Positions 4,114 to 16,430 of a stretch of DNA of 31,838 nucleotides are shown piece after piece. Both the position numbers and the translations under genes were made by a program. The first letter of the stretch is position 1. Each line of letters starts with the position of its first letter. Where the stretch lies: assembly GCA_963764695.1 (NCBI GenBank), contig CAVXTW010000015.1, positions 477,845-509,682 on the forward strand, written 5' to 3'. The stretch comes from an uncultured delta proteobacterium (GTDB lineage Bacteria; Myxococcota_A; Polyangia; Haliangiales; Haliangiaceae). The notes beneath the pieces were generated by a model. It worked only from the letters and a program-made list of their open reading frames with translations, was not told where the DNA came from and did not search any database.

Positions 4114-7100
4114 CTAGTGGGGCTGGGCGCTGCTGCCACTGTCGGCGAAGCGCGTCCGGCCGGTGTGATTCCACCAGTCGAGCCAGCGCTGCCGGGCCTG
4201 CTCGCGCTCGCGGCGCGGCAGATCGTGGTGGTAGCCGAAGTACTCGCCGGTCGCCTTGCGCAGGTCCTCGGCGGCGGAGCGGCGGATCTCGGTGTCCTTG
4301 TGGGCCAGGCCTTCGAGCAGCCACTCGATGCGGTTGCGGGTCCGGTTCTTGTCCCACCAGTGGCGCCACTTGCGATTGCTCGGGCCGAAGTCCTGCTTGG
4401 TCAGGCGCACCAGCGCGCGGCCCGCGATTGTCGCCGCCTCGCCGCCGCCGGCGTGGAGGTCGAGCAGGTCCGGGATCGCGCTGATGTCGGCCAGCTCGCC
4501 CAGCGCGGTCGCCGCGCACTCGATGGTGGTGAGATCGTCGCCGTGCAGCGCGCGTCGCGCGACAGCCAGCGCCGCGGCCAGGTGGGGCTGCGGATACGAC
4601 GCCAGCGCCTCGATCGCGATCGCCCGGGTGCCGCGGTCGGGGTCGAACAGCCGCTCGACCAGCGGCGGCAAGAGCGCCTCGAGCCGCATCTCCGACGCGC
4701 ACAGCGCGGCGTAGTAGCGGACGTCGTTGCCGCTGTCGCGCAGCTTCTCGCTCACCACGTCGGCCGCCGGCGCGCCCATCCGCACCGCGAGCTCGAGCAG
4801 GTGGCCGTGCTGGGCCGCGCGCACGTGGCGGCCGCCGATCTGCCGGCGGTCGAGGATGAGCCGGCCGGGGAAGTGGCGCCGCAGCCACGGCAGCACGTCG
4901 GCCGGCCGGGTGAGTGCCTCCTCCATCGCGCCGGCCGCCGCGGCGTCGTTGGCGCCGTCGACCGCGACCATCAGCGCCTCGACCTCGGGCGGGATCGGAA
5001 TGTCGGCCGCCGCGCTGCCGCTCGCCACCCGCGACTCGCCGGGCCGCGGGATCTCGCCCAGCAGGGTCGGCATCACGTCCGGCGAGACCGCCGCCATGCG
5101 CACTGTCGCGCGGTCGTCGACGCGCTCGGGCGCCTCCGCATCCGCGCGCTGGTCGACCGGCGCGTCCGCGGGCGGCGTCGCGGCCGGCATCTGCCTGCTC
5201 TGCGACATCGCCTTGCCGCGCATGATGATGCGGCCGAGCGCCTCGCTGGCGGTGGCGGCCAGCGGCAGGATCTCCGACGCCTCCGCCACCATCAGCATGT
5301 CGCCGCCGCGATGGCCGATGACCAGCGCCACCACCCGGTTGCGCAGCACCACCGGCAGCAGCAGCGCGCTCGGCGGGATCACGCCGCCCAGCCGCCGGAT
5401 CATCGCGTCGATGTCCTTGTCGCCGGTGGTGACCGGGCCGATGTAGGGCGACGCCGTGTTCACCGCCTGGCGGAACGCCGACGCGGTGTCGAGCGGGATG
5501 AGCACCTGGGCGATGTTGCTCTGCTCCACCTCGTCGCCGGCGATGGCCACGCGGCCGATGGCGGCCCCGCCCTGCACGGTCAAGAGGCCGACGTACCAGG
5601 TGCGCGCGCGGATGGCGCGCAAGAGGATCTGGAAGACCTCGTCGCGATGCTCGGCCGCTCCCAGCATCGCGCGCGCCTCGCTCACGCTGAGCGGCGTCGG
5701 GTCGAAGCCGCCCATGCGGCGGACCGACTGCGTGGTCGCGCCCGAGTCGCCCGCCATCGGCCCGGTCGGCGCCGACGGCAGCGGGGCGACCGGCGGGCCG
5801 CTTGCCTCGTCCTGCGGCCCGATCTCGCCGCTGACCGCGCTCGGACCGCGGCCGTCGTCGAACCGCGCCATCGGCGCGGTGACCGCCAGCCCGCCCGAGT
5901 CGGGGCCGTCGTACTCGATCACCACCTCGGCGGAGCTGCCGGACAGCACCTCGGGCGCGTCGCCCGCCGACCCGTCCGGCACCGTGTCCTCCGGCACCAG
6001 CGGCAGCGGCTCGTCGGTGGTGTGTCGCCTGTATGCCTCGGCCGCCTTCTGATCGACCTCGATCTGTCGCTGGCGCACCGCCTCCGGCGTCATGTCGCGC
6101 GTGCGCCGCCCGCTCGGATGCAGCGGCTGCGCGTCGGCCAGCGCCAGTGCCGCCGGCGTGGGCGCCGTGATGGCCCCGGACGCGTCGAAGGGCGCCGTCA
6201 CCTGTGCCTCGAGCGCCGCCTCGGCCGCGTTCATCGCGACCTGCGGCATGTTCGCCGCGACCGGGGCCGCAGCCGACGCGTCGGCAGCAGCCGCGGCCTC
6301 GGCAGCAGCCGCATCCGCCGCCGCCGCCGCAGCGGCCTCGGCAGCCGCCGCGTCCTCAGCAGCCTGGGCGTCGGCAGCGGCCTGGGCCTGCGCGTTCGCC
6401 CACGCTGCCTCCTGGGCCTCCACAGCAGCCCGCGCCTCGGCAGCCGCCCGGGCCTCTTCTGCAGCCTGCGCCTCCGCAGCCCGCGCCTCTTCCGCAGCCC
6501 GCGCCCCTTCCGCAGCCCGCGCCCCTTCCGCAGCCCGCGCCCCTTCCGCAGCCCGCGCCCCTTCCGCAGCCCGCGCCCCTTCCGCCGCCCGCGCCTCGGC
6601 AGCCGCCCGCGCATCTTCCGCAGCCCCGGCAGCAGTCCGCGCCCCGGCAGGAGCCCTGCCCCCGGCAACCTCAGCGTCCGCAGCCGCCTGCGCAGCGATC
6701 GCGGCCGCGCCCGGCCTGGTCTCCGCCGCCGACGGCGCAGCGGCCCAGCGCGCGGCCGCCGCATCGGCGCCCGGCCTGGTCGCCTCGTCGGTCGGCGCCG
6801 AGGCCGCACGCGCCTCCACATCAGCGACCACCACACCGGGCGACGTGTCCACCCCGGCCAGCGCTGCAGCGAGCGCGCCCGGCCTGGTCTCCTCCGGCGC
6901 CGGCGCCGAGGCGATGCGGGTCGGGGCCGACGCCACCGCCACGGCCGGGTCGAGCCTGGTCGGCTCGGCGGCCGGCGGCTGGGCGAGCGTGCCCACCACC
7001 ACCGACGGCGAGCCGCCGACCGGCGGGATCATCGACGGACGCGACGCCTCGGCCAGGCGCATGAACCGATCGTCGCTGGCCCGCCCGTACACGCGGTCGA

Positions 7101-7530
7101 AGGCCAGCTCGAAGCGAAACTCCGGCGCCACGAACGGCTGCACCGGCGCGCCCAGCTCGCTGGCCAGGTCCTCGAGCAGCCCGAGGTCAACCGGATCGCG
7201 CGCCAGCACCCGCATGGCGTCGCCGTCGAACGACAGCGGCACGACGCGGAAACGCTCGGCCAGCGCGCGCGGACATCGGCTGGCCGCGCGCGGCTCCATC
7301 CCGTCCAGCTCGCGCGCCGTCGCCGGCGGCAGCCCGGTCGCCAGCGACAGGTACTGCAGGAGCCGCTGCTCGGGCAGAAGGTTCATCTCGAGCAGGATGG
7401 TGTCGAGCGCGCCATCGAACAGCACCTGGCGCTGGAACGCCCGCTCCATCCGCCGCACGTCGACCACACCGTCGCGGACCAGCAGCGAGCTCAGGCGCGA
7501 TGTCCCACTCGTCTGGCTCGTCTCGCTCAT
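4114..7530 (-). CDS. multidomain protein: N-terminal MshEN/GspE-N (T2SSE_N) c-di-GMP-binding-type domain, Ala/Glu-rich low-complexity repeats, GAF-like middle region, C-terminal PBS-lyase HEAT repeats
   Basis: 1138-aa uninterrupted ORF. The N-terminal RLSSLLVRDGVVDVRRMERAFQRQ fits the 24-residue MshEN motif RLGxx(L/V/I)(L/V/I)xxG(L/V/I)(L/V/I)xxxx(L/V/I)xxxLxxQ. The central region has (EARAAEGARAA)n and three ETRPGA repeats. The C-terminus has HEAT-like D.D..VR..A..ALG repeats. Confidence 0.75.
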   Translation of the reverse strand: MSETSQTSGTSRLSSLLVRDGVVDVRRMERAFQRQVLFDGALDTILLEMNLLPEQRLLQYLSLATGLPPATARELDGMEPRAASRCPRALAERFRVVPLSFDGDAMRVLARDPVDLGLLEDLASELGAPVQPFVAPEFRFELAFDRVYGRASDDRFMRLAEASRPSMIPPVGGSPSVVVGTLAQPPAAEPTRLDPAVAVASAPTRIASAPAPEETRPGALAAALAGVDTSPGVVVADVEARAASAPTDEATRPGADAAAARWAAAPSAAETRPGAAAIAAQAAADAEVAGGRAPAGARTAAGAAEDARAAAEARAAEGARAAEGARAAEGARAAEGARAAEGARAAEEARAAEAQAAEEARAAAEARAAVEAQEAAWANAQAQAAADAQAAEDAAAAEAAAAAAADAAAAEAAAAADASAAAPVAANMPQVAMNAAEAALEAQVTAPFDASGAITAPTPAALALADAQPLHPSGRRTRDMTPEAVRQRQIEVDQKAAEAYRRHTTDEPLPLVPEDTVPDGSAGDAPEVLSGSSAEVVIEYDGPDSGGLAVTAPMARFDDGRGPSAVSGEIGPQDEASGPPVAPLPSAPTGPMAGDSGATTQSVRRMGGFDPTPLSVSEARAMLGAAEHRDEVFQILLRAIRARTWYVGLLTVQGGAAIGRVAIAGDEVEQSNIAQVLIPLDTASAFRQAVNTASPYIGPVTTGDKDIDAMIRRLGGVIPPSALLLPVVLRNRVVALVIGHRGGDMLMVAEASEILPLAATASEALGRIIMRGKAMSQSRQMPAATPPADAPVDQRADAEAPERVDDRATVRMAAVSPDVMPTLLGEIPRPGESRVASGSAAADIPIPPEVEALMVAVDGANDAAAAGAMEEALTRPADVLPWLRRHFPGRLILDRRQIGGRHVRAAQHGHLLELAVRMGAPAADVVSEKLRDSGNDVRYYAALCASEMRLEALLPPLVERLFDPDRGTRAIAIEALASYPQPHLAAALAVARRALHGDDLTTIECAATALGELADISAIPDLLDLHAGGGEAATIAGRALVRLTKQDFGPSNRKWRHWWDKNRTRNRIEWLLEGLAHKDTEIRRSAAEDLRKATGEYFGYHHDLPRREREQARQRWLDWWNHTGRTRFADSGSSAQPH
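6478..6590 (-). repeat. 18-bp tandem repeat x ~6 (plus-strand unit gcccgcgccccttccgca) encoding AEGARA repeats
   Basis: Direct read; near-perfect copies at 18-nt period inside the giant CDS. Confidence 0.75.
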
Positions 7531-7567
7531 CTCTGGCTCATCCTCGGATCATCTCCCCCGCTCACGG

Positions 7568-8248
7568 TCATGACTCGGCCACGACCACGTAGGTCCCGGC
7601 CAGCCAGTCGTGCAGCGCCCGCTTCTCGCTGTCGAACCCGATCCAGAAGAAGCCCAGCCCCAACGTGACGAGGCTGGCCAGATAGGCGGCGGTGCGCGCC
7701 GCGGTGCGCGGGATCGACGGTGAATCGCCGAACAGATCGATGACGCGCACGCGCAGGACGCGCATGCCGAGCGTGCGTCCGGTGGTGGCCTGGAACAGAA
7801 ACAGATAGATGAGGGCGATGGCGAGCGCCAGCCCGATGCCGCCGACCAGCGCCGGCTCGCCGGCCAGAAACATGTCCAGCCAGAAATCCAGCCCGCGGAA
7901 GTTCGACGGCGGCAGCCGGATGCCGGTGATGACCGCAGCCAGCCAGGTGAGAAGCAGCATCACCGGCGCCAGCACGCCCAGATCGATGAGCGCGGCGGCC
8001 AGCCGTCGCCAGAACCCGGCCACATAGAAGGTGGGTGCCGCCGTGCGACCGCCGCGCGGCACCGGCTGACGCGGCCCCGGATGCGGCGGGTGACCCTGCT
8101 GATGCCCGTGCTGATGCGACGGATCCCAGCCCGGCTGGTGGGCGCTATTGCGCACGCGACCATCCGGGTCGCGGCGCCCCCCTGGGCCCACCGCTCGTTC
8201 CCCCGGATCCGCGCCCAGTATTGCCGGTTGCCGCACGGACATTGTCAT
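7568..8248 (-). CDS. RDD family membrane protein
   Basis: Start taken at MTMSVRQP (ATG 8248) rather than the listed 8431. The RDD-domain pattern RRLAAALIDL...GRTLGMRVLRVRVID...KRALHDWLAGTYVV and TM helices are present. Confidence 0.75.
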   Translation of the reverse strand: MTMSVRQPAILGADPGERAVGPGGRRDPDGRVRNSAHQPGWDPSHQHGHQQGHPPHPGPRQPVPRGGRTAAPTFYVAGFWRRLAAALIDLGVLAPVMLLLTWLAAVITGIRLPPSNFRGLDFWLDMFLAGEPALVGGIGLALAIALIYLFLFQATTGRTLGMRVLRVRVIDLFGDSPSIPRTAARTAAYLASLVTLGLGFFWIGFDSEKRALHDWLAGTYVVVAES

Positions 8249-8276
8249 GGGTTTTACAGCGCGCGCACCGCGGAGA

Positions 8277-9035
8277 TCAAATCTCGCCGAGGACGTACGC
8301 GAGGATCGCGGCTCCCGCAACTGCTGCCGTGTCGGCGCGCAAGATCCGGGCACCCAGTCCCACTGCCGCGAACCCGGCAGCGGTCGCCGCCTCGACCTCG
8401 CCGGCGGACAGACCGCCCTCGGGTCCCACAAGCACCGCGACCGTGGCCGGCGGCCGCTCGGGCAGGGCCGATCGCAGCGGAACTGCCTTCGCCTCCTCCC
8501 AGAAGACCAGTTTCAGCTCCGCGTCCGCCGTCCGCGCAAGTGCCTGGTCGAGGCTGCAGATCGGGTCGACCACCGGCACCTGCATGGCCCGACATTGCTG
8601 GACCGCCGCCCTCACCTGGACGCGGAAGCGCTCGCGCCGCTTCTCGGCCCGCTCCCCGTCCAGCCGCACCACCGACCGCTCGGCGGTCAGCGGCACGATG
8701 CGCCCCACCCCGAGCTCGACGAGCTTGGTGAGACAGTAGTCCATCCGCTCACCCTTGATGAGCGACAGGATGACGGTGAGCCGCGCGGCCGTGCGCGGCG
8801 AGGCGACCGCGGTGCGCGCCCCCACGTCCAGGGCCGCGCTGCGCGAGCCGACGCTCTTGACCTCCGCCTCGGCCTCGCACCCTTCTCCGTCGAACAAGAG
8901 CAGCCTGTCACCCGGGCGCATGCGGCGCACGTGAAACAGGTAGTGGTAGTCCTCGCCGCGCACGCTGCGCTCGCCGGGCACCAGCTCCGACGGTGGGATC
9001 AGGACCCGGAGCAGCTGAGCAGCACCGCGCTCCAC
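8277..9035 (-). CDS. rsmE: 16S rRNA (uracil1498-N3)-methyltransferase RsmE
   Basis: Family hallmarks HYLFHVRRMRPGDRLLLFDGEG, LIKGERMDY, VGPEGGLS. The listed start overlaps prmA by 37 nt, so the true start may be internal. Confidence 0.8.
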   Translation of the reverse strand: MERGAAQLLRVLIPPSELVPGERSVRGEDYHYLFHVRRMRPGDRLLLFDGEGCEAEAEVKSVGSRSAALDVGARTAVASPRTAARLTVILSLIKGERMDYCLTKLVELGVGRIVPLTAERSVVRLDGERAEKRRERFRVQVRAAVQQCRAMQVPVVDPICSLDQALARTADAELKLVFWEEAKAVPLRSALPERPPATVAVLVGPEGGLSAGEVEAATAAGFAAVGLGARILRADTAAVAGAAILAYVLGEI

Positions 9036-9787
9036 GCCGTGTCCTCCTCGTCCCGGCGCAGCTCTTCCAGCGCCATCCCGTGCCCGCGATATCGATCGGC
9101 GACAGGCTCAGCCTGCTCCGACAACAGGCCGCTCAGCGCCAGCCATCCGCCCGGCGCCACGCGCTCGCACAGCGGCGCCGCCAGCTCGGCCAGGACGTCG
9201 GCCTGGATGTTGGCCAGCGCGAGGTCGAACGGGCCGCGCAGCTCGCGCAGGTCCGCGTTCGAGGTCTGGATGCGCGCGGCCCGGTTGGCGGCGATGTTCT
9301 CGGCCGCCACCGCGACCGCGGCGGCGTCGTTGTCGACCGCCAGCACCTCGGCCTGCGGCCACAGCACCGCCGCGCCCAGGGCCAGGATCCCGGACCCGGT
9401 CCCCAGATCGAGCACGCGCGCCGGGCGCACGCCGCGATCGGCGAGGTCCTGCAGGATGCGCAGGACCAGCCGGGTCAACGCATGGGCCCCGGTGCCGAAG
9501 GCCTGGCCCGGATCGAGGTGCACCACCCGATCGTCGGGCCCCGGCTGGTGGCTGTCCCAGCTGGGCACCACCACGATCTGCCGCGTGAGCCGTACCGTCC
9601 GGAAGTAGCGCTTCCACGCGTCGCGCCACTCCGCTTCGGGCGCCGCCTGGCGCGAACTGACCCCGGCCGGGTCCAGCGGCTGCCCGGTCGCGGCCAGCGA
9701 GGCGGCCGCCGTGCGCGCGGCCTGCTCGGCCTCGGGGGCGCGCTCGGCCGGCACCCAGAAGACGACCTCCCGGGCCCGCACCTCCAC
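8999..9787 (-). CDS. prmA: ribosomal protein L11 methyltransferase PrmA
   Basis: DPGQAFGTGAHALTRL and DLGTGSGILAL SAM motifs. PrmA-like N-terminal sequence (LTDWVEISIPV) continues in-frame upstream to ~9901 with no ATG/GTG/TTG, so the true start may be CTG at 9901 or the start was lost. Confidence 0.8.
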   Translation of the reverse strand: MEVRAREVVFWVPAERAPEAEQAARTAAASLAATGQPLDPAGVSSRQAAPEAEWRDAWKRYFRTVRLTRQIVVVPSWDSHQPGPDDRVVHLDPGQAFGTGAHALTRLVLRILQDLADRGVRPARVLDLGTGSGILALGAAVLWPQAEVLAVDNDAAAVAVAAENIAANRAARIQTSNADLRELRGPFDLALANIQADVLAELAAPLCERVAPGGWLALSGLLSEQAEPVADRYRGHGMALEELRRDEEDTAWSAVLLSCSGS

Positions 9788-9985
9788 GCCGCCGGCAGCA
9801 TCCGGGACGGCCGCCGCGAGCAGGGCAGCTGCCTCGTCTGCGGCGCCGTCGTCCGGCGCGCCGCCGATGACGGGGATCGAGATCTCGACCCAGTCAGTCA
9901 GAGCGCGCCGCCGTTCGCCCGATGCCGTGACCGGCAGGCGTGAGCGTCGTCAGCCACGAATTTCTCCGTCCCCCCGCCGGGGCGC

Positions 9986-10201
<216 letters not shown>

Positions 10202-10285
10202 AGAGCCATCGTGGGTACACGAATACTCAACCAGAATCAAGTGTATGGCCGCGAAGTGAATTCAATATAGGTGTAAATATCCCCC

Positions 10286-10314
10286 TTGACTAGAATGTTT
10301 ACGGCGGATAGTGT
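10286..10314 (+). promoter_or_regulatory. sigma70-like promoter: TTGACT (10286-10291), 17-nt spacer, TAGTGT (10309-10314)
   Basis: Read directly in the AT-richer rpsU/small-ORF divergent intergenic region; downstream is AGGAGGG (10384-10390) followed by GTG 10394. Confidence 0.45.
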
Positions 10315-10393
10315 TCGTGTTCAGTTTCCGCCGGCGGGGCACTACAGCAGGCAGGTTGTGCGTCAACTGCTGCTTCCTACTAGGAGGGTGAGA

Positions 10394-10606
10394 GTGGCAA
10401 ACGTCACTGGGGTCAAGGTCTTCTCGGCAACCAAGGCCAAGGAGAGAGAGGGACTCGGCGAAGCGATCACCGAATGGCTGCGCGGAAATCCCAACATGGA
10501 GATCGTGGACAAGATCGTCACCCAGTCCTCGGACTCCGAGTTCCACTGCCTCACCATCACGTTCTTCTATCGGGCTCGCGATCGCTCTTCTTCCGCCGCC
10601 GCGTGA
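10394..10606 (+). CDS. small hypothetical protein (70 aa)
   Basis: GTG start 5 nt after a strong AGGAGGG Shine-Dalgarno. Product VANVTGVKVFSATKAKEREGLGEAITEWLRGNPNMEIVDKIVTQSSDSEFHCLTITFFY has mixed composition. The listed ORF 10286-10606 includes an implausible leader. Confidence 0.5.
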   Translation: MANVTGVKVFSATKAKEREGLGEAITEWLRGNPNMEIVDKIVTQSSDSEFHCLTITFFYRARDRSSSAAA

Positions 10607-10662
10607 AATCGTTTACCGCGCCCCCGAGTTGACGGGCTCTGTATCCGCGATACCTTGCGCGG

Positions 10663-12039
10663 ATGAGCGCACGAGCCCTGCGGCCGGCGGCGTTCGCGAT
10701 CGCCTGTGTCGTCGTGGTTGCCGGTGCGCGTTCGGCGCGCGCGCAGGCACCGGCACGACCGCCGGCGACAAGCGATGCGAACCCGCTGCCCACCATCCAT
10801 GAGTGGAAGCTCAAGAACGGACTGACCGTCGCCCACGTCGAGCGGTCCGGCCTGCCGATGGTCACGGTGCAGGTCTGGTATCGCTTCGGCTCCAGAGACG
10901 AGCCCGCCGGGCAGCACGGAGCCGCGCGCGCCTTCGAGCGCCTGATGTTCCTCGGCTCCGAGCACGTGCGAAGTGAGGACCACCGCCACTTCGTCGAGCA
11001 AGCCGGCGGCGACACCACCGCGCTGGTGACCGAGGATGTGACCGCGTTCCACGACGCGGTCCCGGTCGAGCACTTCGAGAAGGCGCTCGAGCTCGAGGCC
11101 GATCGCATGCGGCGCCTCCTGGTCCGCAACGAGGCGCTCGATGCGATCCGGCCGACCATGATCGAGGAGGTTCGGCGGCAGGAGTCGAGCCCTGTCTTCC
11201 ACGCGTACCAGCGGCTCTTGTCGACCGCGTTCGGCAACCACTCGTACGGGTGGGCGCCGCTCGGCTCGCGCGAGGACATCGCGAAGCTGAGCGGACAACA
11301 TATGAAGGCGCTCTACGACCGCTACTTCGTGCCGGGCAACGCGCTCGTGATCGTCGTCGGCGGCGTGCCGGCCAACGTCGCCGCCACCGCGGTGGAGCGC
11401 TGGTTCGGGCCGCTTCCGGCGACAAACGCGCCGGCCCGCACCGACGACACGCCGCCTGCCGTGGCGGCCAAGGAACCGCACCGCGAGCAGATGCAGGGCA
11501 GCCCGATCGGGCTGGTCATGGCGGGGCACCGCCTGCCGCCCGCGGTCGACGAGGACGTGCTGGCGCTGCAGCTGGCCGGCACCATCCTGACCACCGGCAC
11601 GTCGTCGCGCCTGCACCGCCGGCTGGTCGGCGGAAAGCTGGCCGACGAGATCGGCGGCCAGGTGCTGGTGCGCCGCGACGGCGGCGTGCTGGTCGCGTTC
11701 GCGCGGTTCTCGGGCGGCGCGCTGGCCCCGGTCGAGAAGGCGCTGATGAGCGAGATCGATCGACTGTCAACGCAGGCTCCCGGCGCGGCCGAGCTGCGGC
11801 GCGCCAAGGGGCAGATCCTGGGCGCGGCCTGGTTCGGCATGGAGAACGCGACCGGGCTGGCCAACCAGATCGGCGTGTCGTGGGGGCTGACCGGCAAGCC
11901 AGGGGCCTTCCTGACCGATCTGCTCGCGCTCGACAAGGTCACCGCCGCCCAGGTGCGGCGCGCGGCCGCAAAGTACCTGGCCCGCAACCAGCGGGTGATC
12001 ATCGCGGCCGAGCCGCAGCCGGCGGGAGGTGTGCGATGA
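10663..12039 (+). CDS. M16 (pitrilysin/insulinase) family peptidase homolog, secreted; HxxEH zinc motif apparently degenerate (RAFER)
   Basis: Signal peptide, then GSRDEPAGQHGAARAFERLMFLGSEH aligning to the M16 GSRxE...AHFLEHMLFKGT block; M16_C-like second half. Stop TGA overlaps the next ATG (ATGA). Confidence 0.8.
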   Translation: MSARALRPAAFAIACVVVVAGARSARAQAPARPPATSDANPLPTIHEWKLKNGLTVAHVERSGLPMVTVQVWYRFGSRDEPAGQHGAARAFERLMFLGSEHVRSEDHRHFVEQAGGDTTALVTEDVTAFHDAVPVEHFEKALELEADRMRRLLVRNEALDAIRPTMIEEVRRQESSPVFHAYQRLLSTAFGNHSYGWAPLGSREDIAKLSGQHMKALYDRYFVPGNALVIVVGGVPANVAATAVERWFGPLPATNAPARTDDTPPAVAAKEPHREQMQGSPIGLVMAGHRLPPAVDEDVLALQLAGTILTTGTSSRLHRRLVGGKLADEIGGQVLVRRDGGVLVAFARFSGGALAPVEKALMSEIDRLSTQAPGAAELRRAKGQILGAAWFGMENATGLANQIGVSWGLTGKPGAFLTDLLALDKVTAAQVRRAAAKYLARNQRVIIAAEPQPAGGVR

Positions 12040-14426
12040 CACGCGCGATGAAGACACGCGGCGCGATGGCGCTGGGACTCGTGCTCGCGGCCTGCGGCGG
12101 CGGCAGCAGCGAGGTGGTACCGCGGCTGCCCGGCGATGGCAGCGCGCACACCGCCACCCCGCGCGAGCCGGGCGGCAGCGGGGCCGATCTGTGGGCGGGC
12201 CGGACGCTGATCGCGGCGCCCACCCGGCTGACGCCGAAGCCGGTGAGCATGCCGCCGTTCGAGCGCTTCACGCTCGGCAACGGCCTCACCGTCATCGCGA
12301 TGGAGAGCCACGCCGCACCGACGGTGTGGGTCCAGCTGGCGGTGAAGGCGGGCCGGCAGAGCGAGCCGCCCGACAAGATCGGCCTGTCCAGCTTCGTGGC
12401 CTCGATGCTGCCCAGGGGGGCGCGCGGCCGCAGCGCCGCGGCCATCACCTCGGCCATGGAGCAGGCGGGCGCCGAGCTCAGCAGCAACGCGAGCCTCGAG
12501 GCGCTGCTCATCAACTGTCACGCGCCGACCGCCGGGCAGACCGCGTGTCTGCGCGCGGTGGCCGACATGGCGGCGGCGCCGAGCTTCCCGGCCGGCGCGA
12601 TGAAGGAGGTGCGCGACCAGCTGCTGGGCGCCGCGCGCCAGAACCACATCGATCCGACGCAGCAGGCAAGCGTCCACTTCCAGAACTCGCTGTGGGGCGA
12701 CGAGCACGTGCGCGGCGTGCCGCTGAGCGAGCGCACGGTCAACGCCATCAAGCGCGCCGATCTGCAGAGCTGGCATCGGGCCAACGTCACCCCCAAGAAC
12801 GCCGTGGTGGTCGTCGTCAGCCCGCGCAAGCCGGCGGCGATGAAGGCAGCCCTGGAGTCGGTGTTCGGCAGCTGGCGCGGGGCCGCCCAGGCCGCGCAGG
12901 CCGCGCCGGCGCCTCCCGCGCTGACCGGCATCCGCATCCGGCTCATCGACGTGCCGGGCGCGCGCCAGGCGCAGGTGCGGGTCGGCTCGTTCGGGCTGGC
13001 CCACAAGGACAAGGACTTCTACGCGGCGACCGTGGTCAACCACATCCTGGGCGGCAACGGCCATCGATCGCGCATCGGACGCGCGGTGCGCAAGCTGCCC
13101 GGCGCGAGCGCGACCACCAGCTTTGATCGCAACCTCGAGCGCGGCGCGTTCGTGGCGGCCGGCACCGCGCCGCCCGGCCAGGCCGTGGCGCTGATGCGCG
13201 TGATGATGGATCAGATCGGCCTGATGGCGACCGACGGCCCGCGCGACGTCGAGGTGCGCGTCGCAGCCAGCGAGCTGGCCGGCAGCTACCAGGCGCGGCT
13301 CGCGTCGCACCAGGAGATGGCGAGCGCGCTCCTGGCCGCCGAGCTGCACGGGCTGGGCGCCGAGTACGTGCGCGACTTCGCCGTCAACATCGCCAAGGTG
13401 GACGCGGTCGCGGCGCGCGCGAGCGCAGGACGCTGGCTCGACGGCAAGAACCTTGTCGTGGTCATGAGCGGCAGCGCGCAGGAGATCGAGCCGCAGCTGG
13501 CCGAGGCCGGCCTGAAGTTCGACAAGATCGCAGGCAGCACCGCAGTGGCCGAGAACGAGCGCGCCGCCGCCCAGAAGGAGGCGACCGCCGCGGTCGATCC
13601 GAAGAAGGAGGCCGCGGCGCGCGCCCTGCTCGACGCCGCGCTGGCGGCCAAGGGCGGCGCGGGCAAGCTCGCCGCCGTCAAGTCGATGTCGTGGAAGGGC
13701 AAGGCCACGCTCAACCTGCCGGGCGGCCAGGTGCCGGCCACCGTCGAGAAGCGCTACGTGGCGCCGGACAAGCTGCGCCTCGACATGGTGATCCAGATGG
13801 GCGGGTCGTCGATGAGCATCACGACCGTGCTGGCCGGCGACAAGGGCTGGGCCCAGGAGACGCGGCCGGACGGTGTCAACGCCATCGAGTTCCCGCCCAG
13901 CGAGGTGGAGGCGGGCAAGGCGCAGGTCTGGCGCGATCAGGACTTCGTGCTGCTGCGCCACCGCGACAAGGGCACGCGGGTCGCGCCGCTGGACGACGTC
14001 GAGCTCGAAGGCGTCGCCCACCACGCCGTCCGCGTGACGTCGCCCGACGGCAAGCGCACCGTCGCGCTCTACATCGACAAGAAGCGCAAGCGCCTGGCCG
14101 GCATGACCTACAGCGAGCAGGGCGTCACCGCCGAGGAGTCGTTCGGCGACTACAAGATGGTCAAGGGCGTCGAGATCGCGCACAAGCGGACCACCAAGAG
14201 CGCGCAGATCAACCTGACCACCAATGTCAGCGCCGTGACGATCAACTCGCCGATCGACGGCTCGATCTTCGTCAAGCCTGCGGCCGCGACGCGGCCGGGC
14301 GGTGGAGCGCCGGGTGGAGCGAAGCCTCCCGCGGGTGCGGGTGGAGCGAAGCCTCCGGCCGCGCCGCCGGCGTCGCCGAAGCCGGCCGCGCCCGCTCCGA
14401 AGCCGGCGCCGGGGACGCCGAAGTAG
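12036..14426 (+). CDS. M16 family peptidase homolog lipoprotein with C-terminal LolA-like/beta-rich domain and Pro/Ala/Lys-rich tail
   Basis: ATG 12036 after GGGAGG. Lipobox LAACGG. M16 block GRQSEPPDKIGLSSFVASML has no His/Glu at the HxxEH positions. Beyond ~aa 500 is an extra domain (KGGAGKLAAVKSMSWKGKATLNLPGG...) and a KPPA/KPA-rich tail. Confidence 0.75.
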   Translation: MTRAMKTRGAMALGLVLAACGGGSSEVVPRLPGDGSAHTATPREPGGSGADLWAGRTLIAAPTRLTPKPVSMPPFERFTLGNGLTVIAMESHAAPTVWVQLAVKAGRQSEPPDKIGLSSFVASMLPRGARGRSAAAITSAMEQAGAELSSNASLEALLINCHAPTAGQTACLRAVADMAAAPSFPAGAMKEVRDQLLGAARQNHIDPTQQASVHFQNSLWGDEHVRGVPLSERTVNAIKRADLQSWHRANVTPKNAVVVVVSPRKPAAMKAALESVFGSWRGAAQAAQAAPAPPALTGIRIRLIDVPGARQAQVRVGSFGLAHKDKDFYAATVVNHILGGNGHRSRIGRAVRKLPGASATTSFDRNLERGAFVAAGTAPPGQAVALMRVMMDQIGLMATDGPRDVEVRVAASELAGSYQARLASHQEMASALLAAELHGLGAEYVRDFAVNIAKVDAVAARASAGRWLDGKNLVVVMSGSAQEIEPQLAEAGLKFDKIAGSTAVAENERAAAQKEATAAVDPKKEAAARALLDAALAAKGGAGKLAAVKSMSWKGKATLNLPGGQVPATVEKRYVAPDKLRLDMVIQMGGSSMSITTVLAGDKGWAQETRPDGVNAIEFPPSEVEAGKAQVWRDQDFVLLRHRDKGTRVAPLDDVELEGVAHHAVRVTSPDGKRTVALYIDKKRKRLAGMTYSEQGVTAEESFGDYKMVKGVEIAHKRTTKSAQINLTTNVSAVTINSPIDGSIFVKPAAATRPGGGAPGGAKPPAGAGGAKPPAAPPASPKPAAPAPKPAPGTPK

Positions 14427-14429
14427 ACC

Positions 14430-15632
14430 ATGAGGTGGTGGCCGCTCGTGGTCGCGATCGCGCTGGCCGCGCCGGCGACCGCGCGCGCCGGTGAGGAGAC
14501 CGAGCAGCCACCCGACCCGGCCGGGACCGCAGCGCCGCCCGACGGACCGCCGCCCATCATCGAGCTCTACACGATGGGCCAGGGCGAGCTCGTGTTCGAG
14601 AAGTTCGGCCACGCCGCGCTGTGCGTGACCCACACGCTCGGGCGCCGCCGGACCATCTGTTACAACTACGGCACCACGAACTTCGATGCGATCGTGCCGC
14701 TGTTCTGGGGCTTTCTGCGCGGCCGCTCGGAGTTCTGGGTGTCGACCTCGAGTCGCCGCCACATGGTCCGCGACTATCGCGAGGCCGACCGGACCCTGTG
14801 GCGCCAGGTGCTGCCGCTCGCGCCCGAGCAGGCCCACAGGCTCGACGCCCTCCTGCGCGAGAACGCGCGCGAGGAGAACCGCTACTACCGGTACCACCAC
14901 TATCACGACAACTGCTCGAGCCGCGTGCGCGACCTCATCGACCAGGTCACCGGCGGTGCGCTGTCGGCGGCGAGCGACGCCGGGCCGCTGCCCACCTACC
15001 GCGAGCTGACCCGCACCGGATACGCCGGCACGCCGGAGCTGCTGCTGCTGAGCGACCTCCTGCTCGGCCGCGAGGCCGACGAGCATCCGACCATGTGGCA
15101 GGGGATGTTCCTGCCCGACGTGCTGCGTGCCGAGGTGAAGAGGCGGCTGGGCGCGGCGCCGTCGGTGGTCTACGAGCGGCGCGGCCCGCCCTTCCCCGGC
15201 GACCCGGGCATGGGCGGCCGCTGGCTGTGGATTGCGCTCGCCCTCGCCTTCGCCGTCCCCGCCGCCCTGGCCCGCCGCGTGCGCCGCCAGCGCCTCACCC
15301 TGGCCGCGGCTTTCTTCCCGCTCGCCTTCATCGGCCTGGTGCTGTGGTTCCTGGCCGCCTCCAGCACCCTGTCGGAGCTGCGCTGGAACGAGGTGCTGCT
15401 GGTGTTCGTGCCGTTCGACGCGGTGCTGCCGTTCCTGCGACCGGCCCGGCGCGCGCGCTACGCCGCGATCCGGGCCGGCGTCCTGCTCCTTGTCGGCCTG
15501 CTGCTGGCGGTCGGCGTGCTGCACCAGCCGCTGTGGCTGCTGCTGCTCATGCCGCTGCTGCCGATGCTGCTGGTCGCCGTGCCGGGGCGCGCGCTGTCGC
15601 GCGAGGCCGCGCCCAGCGTCGCCACCAGCTGA
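14430..15632 (+). CDS. DUF4105 domain protein with C-terminal multi-TM region
   Basis: Signal peptide, ELYTMGQGELVFEKFGHAALCV, CYNYGTTNF, YYRYHHYHDNCSSR (DUF4105-like), then hydrophobic helices. Start is 3 nt after the upstream stop. Confidence 0.65.
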   Translation: MRWWPLVVAIALAAPATARAGEETEQPPDPAGTAAPPDGPPPIIELYTMGQGELVFEKFGHAALCVTHTLGRRRTICYNYGTTNFDAIVPLFWGFLRGRSEFWVSTSSRRHMVRDYREADRTLWRQVLPLAPEQAHRLDALLRENAREENRYYRYHHYHDNCSSRVRDLIDQVTGGALSAASDAGPLPTYRELTRTGYAGTPELLLLSDLLLGREADEHPTMWQGMFLPDVLRAEVKRRLGAAPSVVYERRGPPFPGDPGMGGRWLWIALALAFAVPAALARRVRRQRLTLAAAFFPLAFIGLVLWFLAASSTLSELRWNEVLLVFVPFDAVLPFLRPARRARYAAIRAGVLLLVGLLLAVGVLHQPLWLLLLMPLLPMLLVAVPGRALSREAAPSVATS

Positions 15633-15643
15633 GCGGCTTCAGG

Positions 15644-15658
15644 CCGGCGGTGCGCCGG
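15644..15658. terminator. short GC hairpin (CCGGCG-GTG-CGCCGG) between convergent genes; weak bidirectional terminator candidate
   Basis: 6-bp perfect inverted repeat read directly; no U-tract. Confidence 0.2.
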
Positions 15659-15659
15659 G

Positions 15660-16430
15660 TCAGCGCTCGTCGGCGATCTCGACGTGCACGCCCTGCTCGC
15701 GGCAGATGTCGCGCAGCCGCGGCGCCAGCGGCGAGTCGGTGACGAAGTAATCGAGCTGCGAGATGTGGCCGATGCGGACCGGCGCGGTGCGCTCGAGCTT
15801 CATGCTGTCGGCCACCAGGATCGACTTGCGCGCGCACTCCATGATCGCACGCGCCACCTTGACCTCGCGGTAGTCGAAGTCGAGCAGCGTGCCGTCCTCG
15901 TCGATCGCCGACGCGCCGATGACCGCGTAGTCGACCTTGAACTGCCGGATGAAGTTGACCGTCGCCTCACCGACGATGCCGCCGTCCGACTGCCGCACCA
16001 CGCCGCCGGCCACGATGATCTCGATCTCCTCGCAGCCCTGCAGGATGTTGACCACGTGGATGTTGTTCGTGATGGTCAGCAGGCCGCGCTTGCCGCGCAG
16101 GGCCATCGCGACCTGCTCGGTCGTGGTGCCGATGTTGATGAGCAGAGACGAGCTGTCCGGAATCAGCGACGCGGCCACCGTCCCGATGCGCCGCTTGCCG
16201 TCCGTCGCCAGCTTGCGCCGCGCCTCGTAACCGACGTTCGCGATCCCGGAGGCCAGGATCGCGCCGCCGTGAAAGCGCTGCAGGACGCCGCGCTCGCACA
16301 GGTGGTTCAGGTCGCGCCGGATGGTCTGCGGCGTGACGTGGAAGCGGCTGGTCAACGTCTCGACCTTCACCCGGCCTTCCGACCGTGCGAGCGCGACGAT
16401 GTGTGCCTGCCGCGGGTTCAGTCGCTCCAT
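15660..16430 (-). CDS. DeoR/GlpR family transcriptional repressor
   Basis: N-terminal HTH (RQAHIVALARSEGRVKVETLTSRFHVTPQTIRRDLNHL) plus DeoR C-terminal sugar-phosphate-binding fold (VVAGGVVRQ..., IGASAIDEDG). Confidence 0.85.
   Translation of the reverse strand: MERLNPRQAHIVALARSEGRVKVETLTSRFHVTPQTIRRDLNHLCERGVLQRFHGGAILASGIANVGYEARRKLATDGKRRIGTVAASLIPDSSSLLINIGTTTEQVAMALRGKRGLLTITNNIHVVNILQGCEEIEIIVAGGVVRQSDGGIVGEATVNFIRQFKVDYAVIGASAIDEDGTLLDFDYREVKVARAIMECARKSILVADSMKLERTAPVRIGHISQLDYFVTDSPLAPRLRDICREQGVHVEIADER

Follow-up and report, generated by a model that had tools for sequence, protein, structure and literature searches.

The three-gene operon

The DNA considered here is a stretch of 31,838 nucleotides (nt) from an uncultured member of the Haliangiaceae (contig CAVXTW010000015.1), which we refer to as the window and number from its first letter. 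Its subject is an operon of three plus-strand genes, two of which encode homologues of M16B peptidases (M16-A and M16-B) and the third (gene C) a membrane protein of the family formerly known as DUF4105 and now named Lnb_N (PF13387). The window has a G+C content of about 70% and its closest relatives are genomes of uncultured Kofleriaceae/Haliangiales (Myxococcota). The three genes constitute a conserved envelope operon of Haliangiales/Kofleriaceae-type myxobacteria, and all three products face the periplasm or the envelope, M16-A being secreted, M16-B lipid-anchored and gene C embedded in the membrane with a periplasmic catalytic domain. Taken together, these features point to an undescribed module for the handling of lipoproteins.

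M16-A (10663-12039, 458 amino acids (aa)) matches the Pfam families Peptidase_M16 (5.4e-16) and Peptidase_M16_C (7e-18), as does M16-B (12036-14426, 796 aa; 3.2e-09 and 3.6e-18, respectively), and gene C (14430-15632, 400 aa) matches PF13387 at 1.7e-22. An initial annotation of the window, made from its letters and open reading frames (ORFs), had already recognised the third gene as DUF4105 and had described the genes as tightly coupled, and both observations stand. Direct reading of the sequence places M16-A and M16-B in an ATGA overlap (12036-12039) with GGGAGG 7 nt upstream, and separates M16-B from gene C by a gap of 3 nt (TAG acc ATG, 14424-14432). The three products are co-translated from a conserved unit. 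These are genuine genes rather than chance ORFs, since G+C at third codon positions is high (0.90 in M16-A and 0.96 in gene C), the products match known families and have many homologues, and the ratio of non-synonymous to synonymous substitution rates (dN/dS) against the nearest relative is 0.20-0.36 across the operon genes.

The M16 pair and its active site

M16-A carries a Sec signal (ARA/QA) and is a secreted homologue of the active M16B subunit. Its best match in the PDB, over a full-length residue alignment, is 3amj_C (SPH2681, the active subunit; E 1.1e-42), and the best match of a profile of M16-B with its homologues is 3amj_B (SPH2682, the inactive subunit; E 8.5e-71). Both proteins exceed the Pfam gathering score, and their best PDB matches are thus the two subunits of a single solved structure. 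The two-domain fold of the M16B type, with Peptidase_M16 and Peptidase_M16_C in each of two adjacent subunits of ~50 kDa, is present in the pair.

The HxxEH motif that characterises one subunit of such a pair is missing from both (RAFER in M16-A and SFVAS in M16-B). In M16-A the segment R89-A-F-E92-R93, which is preceded by Ala and encoded by nt 10927-10941, aligns with A-H-A-L-E-H of SPH2681, such that both motif histidines are replaced by Arg and the catalytic Glu (E92) is retained. The downstream Glu is also retained, as E169 of M16-A aligns with the third zinc ligand of SPH2681, E131 (numbering per PMC12731061), although without the two histidines E169 cannot form a zinc site. The equivalent position of M16-B reads S119-F-V-A122-S123. 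Loss of HxxEH in both proteins had been claimed in the initial annotation, subject to the motif not lying intact elsewhere in either of them; alignment with the solved 3amj subunits supports the claim, and the whole M16-A and M16-B sequences contain no further HxxEH.

In M16 enzymes an R/Y pair contributed by the C-terminal domain of the partner subunit completes the active site (PMC12731061). M16-B keeps the Arg of this pair (R352), but in the ortholog alignment the Tyr is replaced by Ala357 beside a deletion of 2 aa. Because the Tyr of the partner has been lost as well as the zinc site, the window pair is, as judged from its sequence, almost certainly non-catalytic. The earlier suggestion of a non-catalytic or atypical pair therefore holds for the two proteins together, with the correction that M16-B is an ordinary inactive-type subunit and that the sole unusual state is the loss in M16-A. 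Retention of E92 and E169 would suit an M16-A that is still a peptidase, with its metal bound at another site or its catalytic residue situated elsewhere, but we find this hardly credible: Arg cannot ligate zinc, neither protein has another HxxEH, and the Tyr of the R/Y pair, itself an active-site component (PMC12731061), has been lost in the same lineages.

The N-terminal part of M16-B (12036-13505) comprises a lipoprotein signal, an extension of ~50 aa and the inactive-type clamshell half (residues 73-490). The lipobox is LAAC (nt 12084-12095) and its cysteine, Cys20, is invariant in 43 homologues. The extension that follows the lipidated cysteine is conserved (VVPxLPGDG...DPWAG, residues 21-72, 12096-12251), with P62 and P73 nearly invariant; it has no counterpart in SPH2682 and may be an interaction segment.

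The LolA/LolB-like domain of M16-B

Beyond the M16 module, M16-B continues for ~300 residues, made up of a 30-aa linker, a 230-aa beta-rich domain (residues 521-750) and a 46-aa tail, much as in the initial annotation, which had described a beta-rich extension of this length with a KPPA-rich end. The domain (13584-14285, taken as residues 517-750) is a half-barrel with helices and has the unclosed beta-barrel and helical lid of the LolA/LolB superfamily, to which its fold can be assigned with confidence. Its fold matches are the 'putative outer membrane lipoprotein-sorting protein' 3bk5 (score 17.7), the DUF1329 protein 4z48 (17.5), LolB and LolA3 of Porphyromonas gingivalis (15.9 each), Escherichia coli LolB (13.8) and LolA proteins (10-12.4), and they bear out the LolA-like label that the domain had been given. 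At the level of sequence families, a Pfam scan of the domain returned nothing at E below 0.1, placing it outside LolA, LolB, LolA_like, DUF4292 and DUF1329, and NCBIfam had no usable match by which to name it. The low-complexity tail (14286-14423, or to 14426 with the stop codon) consists largely of P, A, G and K (15, 13, 9 and 5 of the 46 residues, respectively) and has no aligned residues in any M16-B ortholog from related loci.

An exhaustive phmmer search with the barrel domain found 1466 cluster representatives, many of which are free-standing proteins of ~250 aa. Several of these have lipoboxes (P0338, P0341 and P0343), and matches of the free-standing homologues to LolA_like or MucB_RseB are sub-threshold only. 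At one related locus (L090, 2908-6750) a free-standing LolA-like lipoprotein is encoded divergently to an unfused M16 pair, which consists of an HLFEH active subunit that is itself a lipoprotein and an R/Y subunit. Because this free-standing barrel adjoins an M16 pair, the association of M16 proteins with the barrel occurs in both fused and unfused form. A candidate for a further free-standing protein, P0328, was rejected because it is a piece of the fusion cut off by a frameshift in a long-read assembly. Other arrangements are also found: at L087 (3910-7505) DUF3108 takes the place of the barrel behind M16-B, and of the more distant M16-B homologues P0064 is an M16-B/DUF3108 fusion without Lnb and P0059 belongs to an M16 pair with neither barrel nor Lnb.

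Gene C, a distant relative of Lnb

DUF4105 has been shown to be the lipoprotein N-acyltransferase Lnb of Bacteroides, which is the only experimentally characterised DUF4105 protein and was described in 2024 as seemingly confined to that genus (PMC11573676). A later study reports that DUF4105 proteins and Lnt replace each other within gene neighbourhoods that are otherwise conserved, and describes the clade as mostly, but not solely, Bacteroides (PMC12994826). M16 genes are mentioned in neither paper.

Gene C aligns with the NCBIfam model 'lipoprotein N-acyltransferase Lnb' (NF051878) over profile positions 31-382 of 394, scoring 108.2 bits. It has the Lnb_N domain, a membrane-helical C-terminal part, a length of ~400 aa and the five transmembrane helices expected of an Lnb protein. 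An N-terminal signal or anchor is followed by the periplasmic catalytic domain and four C-terminal transmembrane helices, and in the AlphaFold2 model (mean predicted local distance difference test score 91.2) the helices lie at residues 4-12, 264-280, 287-311, 338-361 and 369-383, with which hydropathy concurs. The best fold match of gene C is TseH. The His-Asn-Cys triad is also present, as H61 (14610-14612), N79 (14664-14666) and C162 (14913-14915), and is invariant in 61 homologues. Its spacing matches that of the triad of BT_4364, the Bacteroides thetaiotaomicron Lnb (H49, N66 and C148, of which C148 is essential; PMC11573676), in a comparison made by published positions. On these features gene C encodes a full-length inner-membrane enzyme that belongs, as a distant relative, to the Lnb/DUF4105 family (of the permuted NlpC/P60 type), and by score it is not an equivalog. 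We infer that it N-acylates lipoproteins, but its score lies so far below the equivalog cut-off that the match does not establish the substrate.

The low score also suits a different view, in which the enzyme acts on something other than a lipoprotein, either in phospholipid remodelling as a phospholipase A/acyltransferase of the PLAAT, LRAT or YiiX-like kind or in the N-acylation of processed peptides, with the barrel carrying the lipid product and the M16 chamber supplying or binding the peptide. The fold neighbours of gene C include PLAAT4 (a phospholipase/acyltransferase) and YiiX; lipids are the substrates of the clades that are sisters to DUF4105 (PMC12994826); a second paralog found in some of the same genomes, as described below, could be the true Lnb; and the closest structural relatives of the barrel, 3bk5 and DUF1329, have no proven lipoprotein cargo. 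We nonetheless regard a non-lipoprotein substrate as unlikely, in view of the full-length Lnb architecture with its five helices and triad, the lipoprotein N-acyltransferase activity of the sole characterised family member (PMC11573676), the fact that M16-B is itself a lipoprotein, and the strong fold matches of its barrel to LolB and LolA.

Distribution of the gene order among relatives

When a single genome from each species was scanned with aligned Lnb-like proteins, 80 loci were obtained, nearly all in metagenome-assembled genomes (MAGs) of Kofleriaceae, Haliangiales, Nannocystineae or Polyangiaceae, and 76 of these had enough upstream sequence to be assessed. In 49 of the 76, each from a different species, M16-A, M16-B with its barrel and the Lnb-like gene are directly adjacent and in that order, which answers the question of M16/DUF4105 co-occurrence raised in the initial annotation. 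The spacing of the genes in relatives of down to 39% identity ranges from overlaps to gaps of 7 nt. No conserved operon member was found 3' of the Lnb-like gene, where the genes vary or sit on the other strand, and the unit ends at this gene. The M16/Lnb-like pairing also recurs in rearranged form in a Polyangiaceae MAG (L059, 4830-9080), where an unfused M16 pair is divergent to the Lnb-like gene. No description of an association between M16, LolA-like and Lnb-like proteins was found in the literature searched.

The remaining 27 Lnb-like copies are unlinked and form separate clades. They are paralogs, as is seen from five genomes that have one copy in the M16 operon and another elsewhere. Their contexts are heterogeneous, including an FHA protein, an M36 peptidase, SIS, a helicase and DUF7802, and have no common theme. 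Pairs of paralogs within one genome are seen as L041/L051, L036/L058, L032/L069, L037/L076 and L040/L057.

Lineage-specific loss and selection

M16-A orthologs were taken from 50 related loci, giving 46 non-redundant sequences that cover the zinc site. HMFEH and the Glu ligand are present in 37 of these, HLFEH in one (a Polyangiaceae outgroup), and the motif is degenerate in eight, reading RAFER in the window, L008 and L009, RSFER in L007, HTFER in L005, RMFER in L001 and RMFQY in L014 and L016. The R/Y motif of M16-B (VVRxxGGKTYGASS) is present at nearly all HMFEH loci, and its Tyr has been lost at all eight loci with a degenerate M16-A. Since loss of HxxEH in M16-A and of Tyr in M16-B falls in the same lineages, the catalytic chamber has decayed jointly on both subunits. 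The ancestral M16 pair had every catalytic element, as most relatives still do, and the doubly dead state is derived, specific to a few lineages and not a general feature of the operon family.

How often the loss occurred depends on trees built by neighbour joining only. In these the degenerate lineages occupy as many as three branches near the base, but an ER-LMFLGS signature found in L001, in L005 and throughout the window clade would suit a partly common origin, and because of these two observations the count is left at between one and three events. L005, in which the second His alone has been lost, looks like an intermediate. In two metagenome assemblies built from long reads, frameshifts interrupt the M16 genes of L005 (4276-8481) and of L088 (3058-6726); errors of assembly are the probable cause, and the genes are unlikely to be pseudogenes.

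Both M16 genes of the window lineage are, on their substitution patterns, under purifying selection. Compared with L007 (dS ~0.2), dN/dS is 0.20 for M16-A and 0.20 for M16-B; for distant pairs the extreme G+C at third positions compresses dS, and the ratios are overestimates. Four members of the window clade, with identities of 68-92%, have both ORFs intact, and within this clade conservation is much the same for every domain of M16-B (72-77% identity). With an intact ORF and a ratio of 0.20, M16-A of the window was rejected as a pseudogene. The dN/dS of M16-A roughly equals that of M16-B in the degenerate lineages, whereas in the HMFEH lineages it is ~0.5-0.75 of the M16-B value, a difference that indicates modest relaxation of M16-A rather than neutrality.

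The same data bear on the view that the genes are co-located without mechanistic meaning, the M16 pair being a general peptide-degrading peptidasome of the periplasm, a role already proposed for other M16B enzymes of bacteria, that is co-transcribed with a housekeeping enzyme of the Lnb type, and the dead pair a slowly decaying remnant of it. The physiological substrates of prokaryotic M16B proteases are mostly unknown, and assorted peptides are degraded in vitro (PMC12731061); the operons of L001 and L006 have no Lnb-like gene; and decay would explain both the relative relaxation of M16-A and the further loss of ligands in L001, L005, L014 and L016. We think this rather doubtful. With dS at ~0.2, the dN/dS of 0.20 seen in each M16 gene is not that of neutral decay, the two ORFs are intact throughout the window-clade members examined, the domains of M16-B are equally conserved and the start/stop overlap has been kept, and linkage in 49 species-level loci and the recurrence of M16/Lnb-like adjacency in L059 also weigh against it.

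Flanking genes

The operon is bounded on the left by the divergent rpsU (9986-10240, minus strand) and on the right by a convergent gene for a DeoR-type regulator (15660-16430, minus strand). A promoter scan of 9900-15800 gave a sole sigma-70-like site, on the minus strand before rpsU (10292-10264), and a terminator scan of the same region gave no terminator-like site. Rfam had no matches in the window and a tRNA scan found no genes there. G+C falls to 0.62 in 10001-11000, the region of rpsU, the small ORF and the start of M16-A.

This small ORF (10394-10606, plus strand, 70 aa) begins with GTG behind a strong ribosome-binding site, AGGAGG, and encodes a very conserved hypothetical protein with 3310 homologues, top matches that are 70-99% identical, a dN/dS of 0.03 and no match in Pfam, NCBIfam or the PDB. 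The initial annotation proposed that it might head the operon, and as operon head it was rejected: of 41 related loci, 32 have it upstream of rpsU and on the same strand as rpsU, opposite to the M16 genes. It is always beside rpsU and is on the strand opposite rpsU in nine loci and the window, so that, given these flips of strand among loci, it is better seen as a neighbour with its own orientation history than as a part of the operon.

Further upstream of rpsU, the operon is accompanied throughout the order by a conserved minus-strand block (4114-9949), whose products are a large protein of 1144 aa with an MshEN domain, a member of the RDD family, a methyltransferase of the RsmE type and PrmA. 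A 692-aa ORF at 662-2740 has no Pfam match.

Proposed function

Our preferred reading, which we hold tentatively, is that the operon encodes a module for the handling, in the periplasm, of lipoproteins or peptides acylated in some other way, and that in the window lineage this handling may be limited to binding. On the periplasmic side of the envelope, M16-A, M16-B and the Lnb-like protein would act jointly on such substrates. The Lnb-like enzyme would transfer an acyl chain to the N-terminus of the substrate, the LolA-like barrel would shelter acyl chains, and the M16 chamber would hold the unstructured peptide tether, the same tether that it would ancestrally have trimmed. In the window lineage the chamber would keep a binding or scaffold role only, paralleling the core proteins of the bc1 complex. 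The initial annotation had envisaged a lipoprotein or envelope processing module, a plausible proposal that is better founded now that DUF4105 is known to be Lnb (PMC11573676), with the function itself still a matter of inference.

Such a module is favoured by the family assignments, the LolA/LolB fold, the invariant triad and the linkage of the genes set out above, and by the reported mutual displacement of DUF4105 and Lnt (PMC12994826). In addition, L059 and L090 are independent pairwise associations of an M16 pair with an Lnb-like gene and with the barrel, respectively, and the loss of HxxEH together with the R/Y Tyr has been accompanied by a dN/dS of 0.20 in both M16 genes. Several observations weigh against it. 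Three of the four free-standing LolA-like homologues examined do not adjoin M16 genes, and the neighbourhood of lnb in Bacteroides has no M16 genes. L001 and L006 have retained the M16 pair but have other genes where the Lnb-like one would be (PepSY_TM in L001 and an amine oxidase in L006), and at least five genomes have one linked and one unlinked Lnb-like copy, of which the unlinked could be the housekeeping enzyme. Gene C scores 108.2 bits against an equivalog cut-off of 550 for NF051878. Finally, the near-equal dN/dS of M16-A and M16-B in the degenerate lineages also fits slow decay.

A more ambitious version of the module, and one that we consider quite improbable, is that M16-A, the M16-B/LolA-like lipoprotein and the Lnb-like enzyme form one late lipoprotein-biogenesis machine. 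Here non-Lnt N-acylation outside the Bacteroidota would be coupled directly to a lipid-anchored, LolB-like acceptor or insertase, and the M16 clamshell would be a receptor for the N-terminal tether of lipoproteins, able to lose proteolysis. If true, the machine would give this phylum, which is not known to have one, a function of the LolB type. How lipoprotein trafficking is completed in bacteria without LolB is an open question (PMC11784454).

Comparison with known systems

The M16B pair, the fused LolA/LolB-fold barrel and the Lnb-type acyltransferase are each known parts, and the operon is a new combination of them. The Bacteroides Lnb (BT_4364 / BF9343_0945) resembles gene C in having a periplasmic Lnb_N domain followed by a helical membrane part, a length of ~400 aa and equal spacing of the triad; gene C differs in its distant sequence (108 versus 550 bits), its myxobacterial host and its place in an operon with an M16 pair. 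A whole myxobacterial order carries full-length genes of the Lnb type with the triad, translationally coupled to a lipoprotein of LolB/LolA fold, and these genes and the barrel lipoprotein are testable candidates for non-canonical N-acylation or handling of lipoproteins. In Staphylococcus aureus, the LnsA/LnsB system pairs an acyltransferase of the NlpC/P60 superfamily with a partner whose family is of the protease type. It is unlike the window operon in its partner family and its Gram-positive host, and the comparison does not imply that it is homologous to the M16 pair. That LnsA and Lnb are related through NlpC/P60 has been noted (PMC11573676).

The barrel of M16-B can be set beside LolB and LolA, LolA_like (PF17131, 3bk5), DUF1329 (4z48) and the P. 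gingivalis LolB (9tpm), from which it differs in having no Pfam LolA, LolB or LolA_like match at threshold and in being fused behind an M16 module of 490 aa. For the M16 pair the closest comparison is SPH2681/SPH2682 of Sphingomonas sp. A1 (3amj), likewise the products of adjacent genes and two-domain halves of a clamshell, each of which matches its own counterpart in the window. In the window pair, however, both His ligands of M16-A are Arg and the Tyr of M16-B is lost, M16-B is a lipoprotein with an N-terminal extension and a C-terminal LolA-like domain, and the operon carries an Lnb-like gene. Almost no physiological substrates are known for bacterial M16B heterodimers, and a conserved genetic partner together with a fused lipid-binding domain is a lead towards one.

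As to the fate of the pair, the mitochondrial bc1 core 1 and core 2 proteins, which derive from the mitochondrial processing peptidase and give significant sequence matches, are also an M16B pair that has lost catalysis and been kept as a structural or binding module. Yeast core I and core II are listed as lacking HxxEH (PMC12731061). They differ from the window pair in complex, compartment and lineage, such that the analogy is one of evolutionary fate and not of orthology. Joint loss of the zinc site in one subunit and of the R/Y pair in the other, under continued selection, makes the window lineage a natural experiment in the evolution of pseudoenzymes.

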